Source: Escherichia phage Turkey3
Length of the DNA stretch: 64,000 nt
Sequence record: PQ471515.1
Reading direction: 5' to 3' (one strand)
Position numbers and translations under genes: made by a program. The notes under the pieces were generated by a model, which was not told where the DNA came from, did not search any database, and worked only from the letters and a program-made list of their open reading frames with translations. Below are positions 60,553-61,032 of the stretch, piece after piece. The first letter of the stretch is position 1, and the number at the start of each line of letters is the position of its first letter.

Positions 60553-61032
60553 ATGATACATGAACATTGTGGTAATCTGTTTGATTTATTCAGTACTGTT
60601 ACTACTGATCAAACTGCATTACATATTATCGCTCATGGTTGTAACGCTCAGGGTAAGATGGGTTCTGGTTTTGCAAAAGAATTAAGAAAGCGTCACCAAT
60701 TGGCATATGATGTGTATCATACACGTTATACCAATCAGAATGGTTTGAAATTGGGTGAAGTTGTCTATGCAGCACCAAATAATAACTTAATTATTGCAAA
60801 CTGCATTACACAAGAGTATTATGGTAATGATGGTAAGAAGTATGTAAGTTATGATGCGATTGACCTTGCATTTAACTCGATGAATGAATTCATTAAAAAT
60901 GAACCACAAGAGATCCATGTACACTTCCCGAAAATTGGAGCCGATTTAGGCGGTGGTAACTGGAACGTTATCAAAGAAATCATTGACCACAGACTGGTTA
61001 ATGCAGAAAAACACTTATACATTCTAAAATAA
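60553..61032 (+). CDS. macro-domain protein (ADP-ribose binding/processing)
   Basis: IIAHGCNAQGKMGSGFAKEL and HFPKIGADLGGGNW resemble macro-domain glycine-rich loops. Confidence 0.6.
   Translation: MIHEHCGNLFDLFSTVTTDQTALHIIAHGCNAQGKMGSGFAKELRKRHQLAYDVYHTRYTNQNGLKLGEVVYAAPNNNLIIANCITQEYYGNDGKKYVSYDAIDLAFNSMNEFIKNEPQEIHVHFPKIGADLGGGNWNVIKEIIDHRLVNAEKHLYILK

Follow-up and report, generated by a model that had tools for sequence, protein, structure and literature searches.

In the stretch of Escherichia phage Turkey3 analysed here (sequence record PQ471515.1; 64,000 nucleotides, referred to below as the window) one open reading frame (ORF) of the + strand encodes a protein of 159 residues that consists of a single macrodomain of the ALC1/TARG1-like clade, with an active site that the alignments place in the Gln type. 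According to the ORF list the coding sequence occupies 60553..61032, with an ATG at 60553 and a TAA stop at 61030-61032 (159 codons), which is exactly the position given in an earlier note made from the letters alone. The two glycine-rich peptides which that note had quoted were both found in the protein, HGCNAQGKMGSGFAKEL at residues 28-44 and PKIGADLGGGNW at residues 126-137, where conservation across the family (119 homologs) is highest. The ORF is non-random, 329 database clusters being matched at E<=1e-3 with a top value of 2.4e-104.

The Shine-Dalgarno sequence of the gene, GGAG (60543..60546, + strand), was read directly from the sequence; the ATG lies 6 nucleotides downstream of it and the same arrangement is present in phage 121Q. 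Directly 5' of the Shine-Dalgarno sequence, a consensus scan found a terminator-like hairpin, AAGGACTCTG-ATTA-CAGAGTCCTT with a T-rich tail (60512..60541, + strand). The hairpin itself (60512-60535) has a stem of 10 base pairs, five of them GC, and a loop of 4 nucleotides followed by TCTTTTC, and it is predicted to have the form of a rho-independent terminator, namely a GC-rich hairpin and then a U-tract. The terminator that had been noticed upstream of the gene is thus present as a terminator-like hairpin, and its stem is unchanged in 121Q, where the loop reads ACCA instead of ATTA. An identical stem with an altered loop suggests selection on the hairpin structure. It may end the transcript of the preceding gene, or it may serve as a 5' element for stabilisation or processing. 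The scan scored the hairpin as a terminator on both strands, and the intergenic bases around it vary between Turkey3 and 121Q.

The gene had also been described as a monocistronic unit, and this description had to be abandoned. The T-tract of the hairpin ends 1-2 nucleotides 5' of the Shine-Dalgarno sequence, which makes a promoter between the hairpin and the macro gene impossible, and no sigma-70-like site was found on the + strand in 60480-60552. On the other side, the ATG of the next gene is at 61052, 19 nucleotides past the macro stop codon, and the consensus scan gave no + strand terminator-like site between 61032 and 62500. From the missing promoter, the short gap and the lack of a downstream terminator, the macro gene therefore looks like a member of a co-directional array that reaches the neck gene at 61997-62803. 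The order of this array is CCA-adding enzyme, NUDIX hydrolase, glutaredoxin, two small ORFs, the hairpin, the macro gene, three small ORFs and the neck/adaptor gene. Transcription might instead start from a T4-late-promoter-like TATAAAT directly 5' of the hairpin (60505-60511), so that the messenger RNA would begin with the hairpin; this was rejected because 121Q has TTTAAAAT there and the element is not conserved.

Macro fold and distribution of the family

The single sequence scores 17.9 bits against the Pfam Macro family (PF01661), under the 22-bit cut-off, and many of its homologs carry a precomputed PF01661 match. A Peptidase_M16_C match in Pfam (16.9 bits, also below the cut-off) was taken as spurious; PHROGs, the PDB profiles and the structure decided for macro. 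The match to PHROG 335 has an E-value of 1.3e-44, and phmmer against the PDB retrieved BT1257 (2fg1) at 1.3e-15 and SCO6735 (5e3b) at 2.3e-10. When a family profile built from 49 sequences was searched against the PDB, it matched BT1257 (2.8e-26), SCO6735 (2e-19), Poa1p (3.6e-14), DarG (7.8e-13), TARG1 (2.7e-9) and ALC1 (0.02), while MacroD sequences (including the YmdB type), PARG and viral Mac1 sequences gave no match in that search. The earlier note had staked its macrodomain assignment on such profile searches, and these matched solved macrodomains with E-values from 2.8e-26 to 3e-9. In the defence-gene libraries the sole match was to the macro part of DarG (PADLOC 3.4e-9, NCBIfam 3.4e-6).

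The AlphaFold (AF2) model of the protein, with a predicted local distance difference test (pLDDT) of 94.6 and a predicted template modelling score (pTM) of 0.90, contains a mixed beta-sheet with helices. In Foldseek searches of the PDB with this model the template modelling (TM) scores were 0.83 for BT1257 (2fg1) and 0.76 for SCO6735 (5e3b), solved macrodomains as a whole ranging from 0.69 to 0.83, and the probability was 1.00 for these two as well as for DarG (5m3e/5m31), TARG1 (4j5r) and Poa1p. After BT1257 the order of the superpositions was Poa1p, SCO6735, DarG and TARG1. A search against viral models returned phage Tk.4-like and macro proteins. The model and the Foldseek matches thus point to the three-layer alpha/beta/alpha macro fold, and the protein, a single domain of 159 residues, belongs to the macro superfamily and, within it, to the ALC1/TARG1-like clade.

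The window comes from a jumbo myovirus that infects E. coli and belongs to the genus Asteriusvirus (121Q/PBECO4 group). Over 5 kilobases (kb) it shares 99.8% identity with phage Ecwhy_1; its identity to 121Q is about 85%. The Ecwhy_1 protein is 100% identical to that of Turkey3 and already bears the label 'Appr-1-p processing domain protein'; the RefSeq label of the 121Q and PBECO4 orthologues is 'macro domain-containing protein', and other records use 'phosphatase'. Macro domains had already been placed among the NAD/ADP-ribose genes of jumbo phages in a comparative review of 2021 (PMC7824862). By tblastn, macro relatives occur in 2,466 of 50,697 phage records (~5%), spanning T-even-like, rV5-like and FelixO1-like phages, myoviruses of Pseudomonas, Acinetobacter and Vibrio and others, with many lytic groups among them. 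The gene, the domain and the likely role of the family are already public, and the finding in itself is an ordinary one.

Active site and relation to characterised macrodomains

Conservation was counted over the 119 full-length homologs. Residues H28, G29, C30, N31, M36, G39, T86, Q87, G91, P126 and G129 are invariant (119/119), N83 is kept in 118 of 119, and G134, G135 and W137 are nearly invariant. These residues gather in three segments of the gene. Codons 28-40, HGCNAQGKMGSGF (60634..60672, + strand), align to 'AHVCNDLGGWGKGF' of SCO6735 and are the predicted first ADP-ribose-binding loop. Codons 83-91, NCITQEYYG (60799..60825, + strand), correspond to the catalytic strand and the start of an extended loop, the codon of Gln87 being 60811-60813. 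Finally, codons 126-137, that is the second of the two peptides mentioned above (60928..60963, + strand), align to 'PRIGCGLDRLQW' of TARG1 and form the predicted glycine-rich loop 2, which would bind the diphosphate.

The protein was aligned with TARG1 (its sequence checked against PDB 2lgr), BT1257, SCO6735, T4 Tk.4 and PhiKZ gp104. Three alignment methods put Gln87 in the column of TARG1 Lys84 and SCO6735 Gln85, positions that have been described as equivalent to each other and to Lys80 of DarG (PMC9411070). The equivalence of DarG Lys80 rests here on that paper, since a tblastn search of plasmids for a genuine DarG to align yielded nothing but macro proteins of the stand-alone kind and members of the 'SLOG family'. 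In the same alignments Asn31 is the equivalent of SCO6735 Asn27, Gly29 that of SCO6735 Val25 and Gly133 that of TARG1 Asp125. The segment from Q87 to Y100 is longer than that from K84 to Y93 of TARG1 and similar to those of BT1257 and SCO6735, with a pLDDT of ~80 at residues 91-100. Of the features of the SCO6735-type subclass, the Gln column, the Asn equivalent and the extended loop are thus present, and a Val or Ile at the position of Val25 is absent.

The biochemistry of SCO6735 gives these residues their meaning. This enzyme removes the thymidine-linked ADP-ribose that DarT places on DNA and protects E. coli against the toxicity of DarT; the de-ADP-ribosylation of DarT-modified DNA is abolished in the Q85A mutant and nearly so in N27S (PMC9411070). 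In the mechanism proposed for it the glutamine, whose rotamer is locked by Asn27, positions the distal ribose, and a water held by the backbone starts catalysis; Val25, which was called specific to SCO6735, is thought to position this catalytic water through its backbone carbonyl (PMC9411070). From the alignment and the SCO6735 mutants, both side chains of the glutamine mechanism are kept (Asn31 and Gln87), with the Lys (and Asp) of DarG/TARG1 absent. The predicted active site is accordingly of the SCO6735 type, with Gln in place of the catalytic Lys of DarG and TARG1.

SCO6735 (5e3b) and BT1257 (2fg1/2afc), both of the Gln-type subclass, are the nearest solved relatives, at ~29-32% identity. 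They share with the Turkey3 protein the Gln column, the Asn27 equivalent, the GGxW loop and the extended loop after the Gln. Unlike it, they are encoded on bacterial chromosomes and are basic, with an isoelectric point (pI) of ~9 (partial sequences) against 6.5, and two residues of SCO6735 are exchanged, Val25 for Gly29 and Lys34 for Ser38.

Among phage proteins the closest precedent is Tk.4 of T4. In a transposon screen of T4 and with a clean knockout, tk.4 was found to be needed only on E. coli (K-12) that expresses DarTG2, and the protein was named AdfM, for anti-DarT factor Macrodomain (bioRxiv 10.1101/2025.11.20.689424). It is homologous to the Turkey3 protein (BLASTP 1e-13 at 32% identity; hhalign 99.3%), and against the hidden Markov model of the family it scores 77 bits, with 92 for BT1257 and 70 for SCO6735. 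Like the Turkey3 protein, Tk.4 is a single phage-encoded macrodomain of about 155 residues that has no partner gene and whose host is E. coli. The two have in common the HGCN...MGSG loop, the N-x-x-T-Q strand and the P-[KR]-IGAG-x-G-x-G-x-W loop, the register of the N-x-x-T-Q motif being that of hhalign and hmmsearch; the placement of the 'TQ' of Tk.4 by MAFFT and BLASTP was off-register and was discarded. The differences lie in the low identity, in the loop past the Gln, which is 4 residues shorter in Tk.4 (hhalign), and in the genomic context, since tk.4 belongs to the tk-vs region of T4, a T-even phage with a genome of 169 kb, whereas the present gene is in the CCA/NUDIX/neck region of a jumbo phage of ~355 kb. 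They also differ in what is known of their function, there being genetic evidence for Tk.4, whereas the Turkey3 protein is described from its sequence and model.

A second precedent is gp104 of PhiKZ, also named AdfM. In vitro it strips ADP-ribose off DNA that DarT2 has modified; it also relieves DarT2 toxicity and confers protection on the phage (PMC13309987). It resembles the Turkey3 protein in being a stand-alone macrodomain of a jumbo phage, of the same clade and with the conserved catalytic Asn. Nevertheless the relationship is more remote, with 19% identity and an hhalign probability of 97.9%, the active site has the 'TK' of the Lys type as in DarG, and gp104 enters the phage nucleus by import (PMC13309987). 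Neither the window nor the 121Q regions examined showed a chimallivirus hallmark gene. The two separately named AdfMs therefore differ in their active sites, T4 Tk.4 having a SCO6735-like 'YTQ' and PhiKZ gp104 a DarG-like 'PTK', a difference that passes without comment in the parts consulted of bioRxiv 10.1101/2025.11.20.689424 and PMC13309987. By sequence, the AdfM-like proteins of phages comprise a Gln-type lineage, with T4 Tk.4 and the present family, and a Lys-type lineage in the chimalliviruses.

DarG belongs to the same macrodomain clade and the same reaction is predicted for both. It is, however, a protein of ~330-350 residues with a C-terminal DarT-binding domain, an adjoining darT and Lys80, whereas the Turkey3 protein has 159 residues, no darT and Gln87. 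A DarG identity was rejected: the score for NCBIfam NF048014 was 26.6 bits, where 250 are required, and the match covered profile positions 20-139 of 338 only, the C-terminal domain being absent. Human TARG1/OARD1 and yeast Poa1p have the same fold and clade. The Lys84/Asp125 dyad of TARG1, an enzyme that reverses thymidine- and uracil-linked ADP-ribose (PMC13036486), is replaced by Gln87 and Gly133. Poa1p shares its H23 with the protein (H28) but differs at S30 and F152 (K35 and G133) and has Ser in the Gln column.

Proposed function and alternatives

We propose that the gene probably encodes an orphan DarG2-like counter-defence enzyme of the AdfM type, that is an ADP-ribosyl hydrolase of the SCO6735/T4-Tk.4 subtype directed against DarT2. 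The protein is a stand-alone macrodomain encoded by a phage, it has neither a DarT-binding domain nor a cognate darT, and it is homologous to a validated AdfM, these being the sequence and architecture traits of AdfM. The neighbourhood analysis found no conserved partner gene of the macro gene, either at this locus or at those of distant homologs, and among its neighbours there is no toxin-like domain and no darT nearby. One domain of 159 residues with no conserved partner fits the expectation for an orphan gene of antitoxin type. The present analysis establishes the fold, the clade and the conservation of the active site; it also establishes that the protein is homologous to T4 AdfM and that a DarT-binding domain and a partner gene are lacking.

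In the proposed mechanism DarT2 of the host would ADP-ribosylate thymidines of single-stranded phage DNA and so block replication. The macrodomain would then bind the ADP-ribose with its glycine-rich loops 28-40 and 126-137, and Gln87, positioned by Asn31, would bring about hydrolysis of the N-glycosidic bond between thymine and ribose, releasing free ADP-ribose and restoring replicable DNA. The catalysis, the thymidine-ADP-ribose DNA substrate and the anti-DarTG2 phenotype that this scheme supposes are carried over from homologs only. The suggestion that the protein reverses ADP-ribosylation by host toxins, for which hosts carrying DarTG were named as the test, had been made in the earlier note and agrees with the findings on T4 Tk.4/AdfM, PhiKZ AdfM and SCO6735.

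Several points weigh against this proposal. The literature search found no experiment on any Asteriusvirus orthologue or on the Turkey3 protein, no more than 32% of residues are identical between it and T4 AdfM, and T4 Tk.4 itself is known from genetics only, in a preprint (bioRxiv 10.1101/2025.11.20.689424). Sequence is an unreliable guide to the substrate specificity of macrodomains, and SCO6735 also acts on protein (PARP1 E988Q; PMC9411070) and on uracil-ADP-ribosylated RNA (PMC13036486), so that DNA is not the sole possible substrate. Val25 of SCO6735 is replaced by Gly29, which is invariant in the family; this is not decisive because the contact runs through the backbone. Moreover the protein is not basic (pI 6.5, against 9.4 for the partial sequence of SCO6735). 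T4 Tk.4 (pI 5.9) and PhiKZ AdfM (pI 5.05) are acidic as well, and pI was set aside as a proxy for DNA binding since it does not discriminate when validated AdfMs are acidic.

Macrodomains as 'orphan antitoxins' that act as anti-DarTG2 factors were recognised only in 2025-2026, with T4 Tk.4 and PhiKZ gp104, and the literature search found nothing that connects an Asteriusvirus orthologue to DarTG. The anti-DarTG assignment for Asteriusvirus would follow from homology in a straightforward way, and the present data suggest that jumbo coliphages of the 121Q/PBECO4 type carry the Gln-type version of AdfM. If the anti-DarT2 role is true, the gene predicts resistance of the phage to E. coli bearing DarTG2, which is of relevance to phage therapy and host range. 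The locus also draws attention to a mechanistic split of the AdfM-like enzymes of phages into a Gln-type and a Lys-type lineage. The importance of the finding is nevertheless modest and it holds no surprise for the specialist.

The alternatives that follow and the anti-DarT2 role do not exclude one another. It is conceivable, if unlikely, that the Gln-type phage macrodomains (the present family and T4 Tk.4) are broad-spectrum erasers, which by analogy with SCO6735 would act on thymidine-ADP-ribose in DNA and also on uracil-ADP-ribose in RNA or on ADP-ribose of proteins. This stays within consideration because the substrates of SCO6735 are mixed (DNA, RNA and protein). If it were true, one small enzyme would neutralise several ADP-ribosyltransferase (ART) defences of the host, and the ADP-ribose set free could possibly be channelled into the NUDIX/Sir2 module of the phage.

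A role in small-molecule housekeeping has a similarly low probability. The protein would here deacylate O-acetyl-ADP-ribose made by Sir2, or would dephosphorylate ADP-ribose-1''-phosphate as Poa1p does, and the resulting ADP-ribose would pass to NUDIX hydrolases. The phage does encode one Sir2 and two NUDIX proteins, and one of the two NUDIX genes precedes the macro gene by four genes; Poa1p is among the nearest solved relatives (3.6e-14), and its type of activity is the source of the labels 'phosphatase' and 'Appr-1-p processing'. In addition, TARG1 is named 'O-acetyl-ADP-ribose deacetylase 1' in PDB entries, and it has been proposed that in jumbo phages Macro domains degrade metabolites or signals derived from ADP-ribose, with NUDIX enzymes acting downstream (PMC7824862). 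However, the Sir2-family gene (23987-24739, + strand; Pfam SIR2 1.3e-19, PHROG 2162) lies 36 kb from the macro gene and overlaps by 4 nucleotides a Nudt16-like NUDIX gene of its own (24736-25287, + strand; PF22327 1.4e-18, PHROG 9999), with which it looks like a translationally coupled pair. This pair is possibly a nicotinamide adenine dinucleotide (NAD+)/ADP-ribose module of the phage that is not linked to the macro gene. There is no Sir2 in the annotated neighbourhood of T4 tk.4, and neither a Sir2 nor a NUDIX gene stands beside the distant homologs. On these grounds a functional link to Sir2 was rejected, and with it the suggestion of the earlier note that the macrodomain processes the products of the Sir2-like enzyme.

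The same idea could also draw on the RNA ligase, polynucleotide kinase and CCA-adding enzyme genes of the orthologous 121Q region. Against it, to our knowledge repair of the T4 type by Pnk and Rnl1 is not a source of 2'-phosphate or Appr>p. Of the three Poa1p residues covered by mutant structures (H23, S30 and F152) the His alone is conserved, the Gln87 column holds a Ser in Poa1p, and the search of the PDB with the family profile gave no sequence match of the MacroD/YmdB type.

Removal of mono-ADP-ribose from proteins is distinctly unlikely as the main role. The enzyme would take Asp/Glu-linked ADP-ribose off phage or host proteins that are targets of host ART toxins, or would tune ARTs of the phage itself. 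It is in favour of this that mono-ADP-ribose linked to glutamate on PARP1 E988Q is a substrate of both SCO6735 and TARG1 (PMC9411070; see also PMC5087735), that the Q85A mutation of SCO6735 kills this activity too (PMC9411070), and that ARTs are common in jumbo phages that have no RNA polymerase of their own (PMC7824862). Nevertheless the annotation of 121Q shows no ART in the 87 kb examined around the orthologous gene, the Lys84/Asp125 dyad which serves the ester-linked mechanism in TARG1 is absent, and the sole phenotype reported for the T4 homolog is specific to DarTG2 (bioRxiv 10.1101/2025.11.20.689424).

It is very unlikely that the primary substrate is RNA, in which case the protein would reverse ADP-ribose linked to uracil or to other bases of phage transcripts or transfer RNAs by a host ART that targets RNA. 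SCO6735 (efficiently), TARG1 and DarG do remove N3-uracil ADP-ribose from single-stranded RNA in vitro (PMC13036486), and the macro gene stands among RNA-related genes such as that of the CCA-adding enzyme. But no bacterial defence toxin that ADP-ribosylates uracil is named in the literature covered, the adenine modification by CmdT, which is the known mark of an RNA-targeting toxin, is called irreversible (PMC13036486), and the gene neighbourhood is not conserved at distant homologs.

Finally, a non-catalytic reader or sponge that sequesters immune signals derived from ADP-ribose is highly improbable: many macrodomains merely bind ADP-ribose, and the binder ALC1 has the same Gln in the catalytic column, Gln85 being conserved in ALC1 homologues (PMC9411070), but Asn31 and Gln87, the pair essential for catalysis in SCO6735, are strictly invariant (119/119), and the nearest characterised relatives are enzymes (SCO6735) or enzyme-like by their genetics (T4 Tk.4).

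Neighbouring genes and minor observations

Upstream of the macro gene, the CCA-adding tRNA nucleotidyltransferase (58098-59213, + strand) has a PolyA_pol head and RNA-binding domains. It is followed by the small NUDIX hydrolase (59320-59733, + strand), which is the second of the phage, and by the glutaredoxin (59723-59971, + strand). Downstream, the run of small ORFs ends at the neck/adaptor gene. The RNA ligase and polynucleotide kinase genes of 121Q mentioned above, both of T4 type, are located in the wider orthologous region.

Two genes 3' of the macro gene, an ORF of 125 residues (61373-61750, + strand) has no Pfam match and belongs to PHROG 14786, of unknown function. It may correspond to the product labelled 'aminoacyl-tRNA hydrolase' that the fEgEco12 record lists at some point under the 5-kb match.

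A macro homolog (P0083, 44% identical) was also found in a metagenomic contig of 401 kb, a size befitting a jumbo phage (ENA ERZ27257313), at 6001-6489 of the stretch examined. An S-adenosylmethionine (S-AdoMet) synthetase is encoded two genes away from it, and an S-AdoMet lyase and a PTH2 peptidyl-tRNA hydrolase are close by. As S-AdoMet lyase genes are of a known anti-restriction type, the surroundings of this homolog may be an anti-defence gene cluster.

Further upstream in the window, two slightly overlapping ORFs of the + strand (57140-57553 and 57519-57962) are tandem paralogs, which have in common a C-terminal 'LQYxFIDDTFxxD...' block (BLASTP 1e-9, 39% identity over 49 residues).

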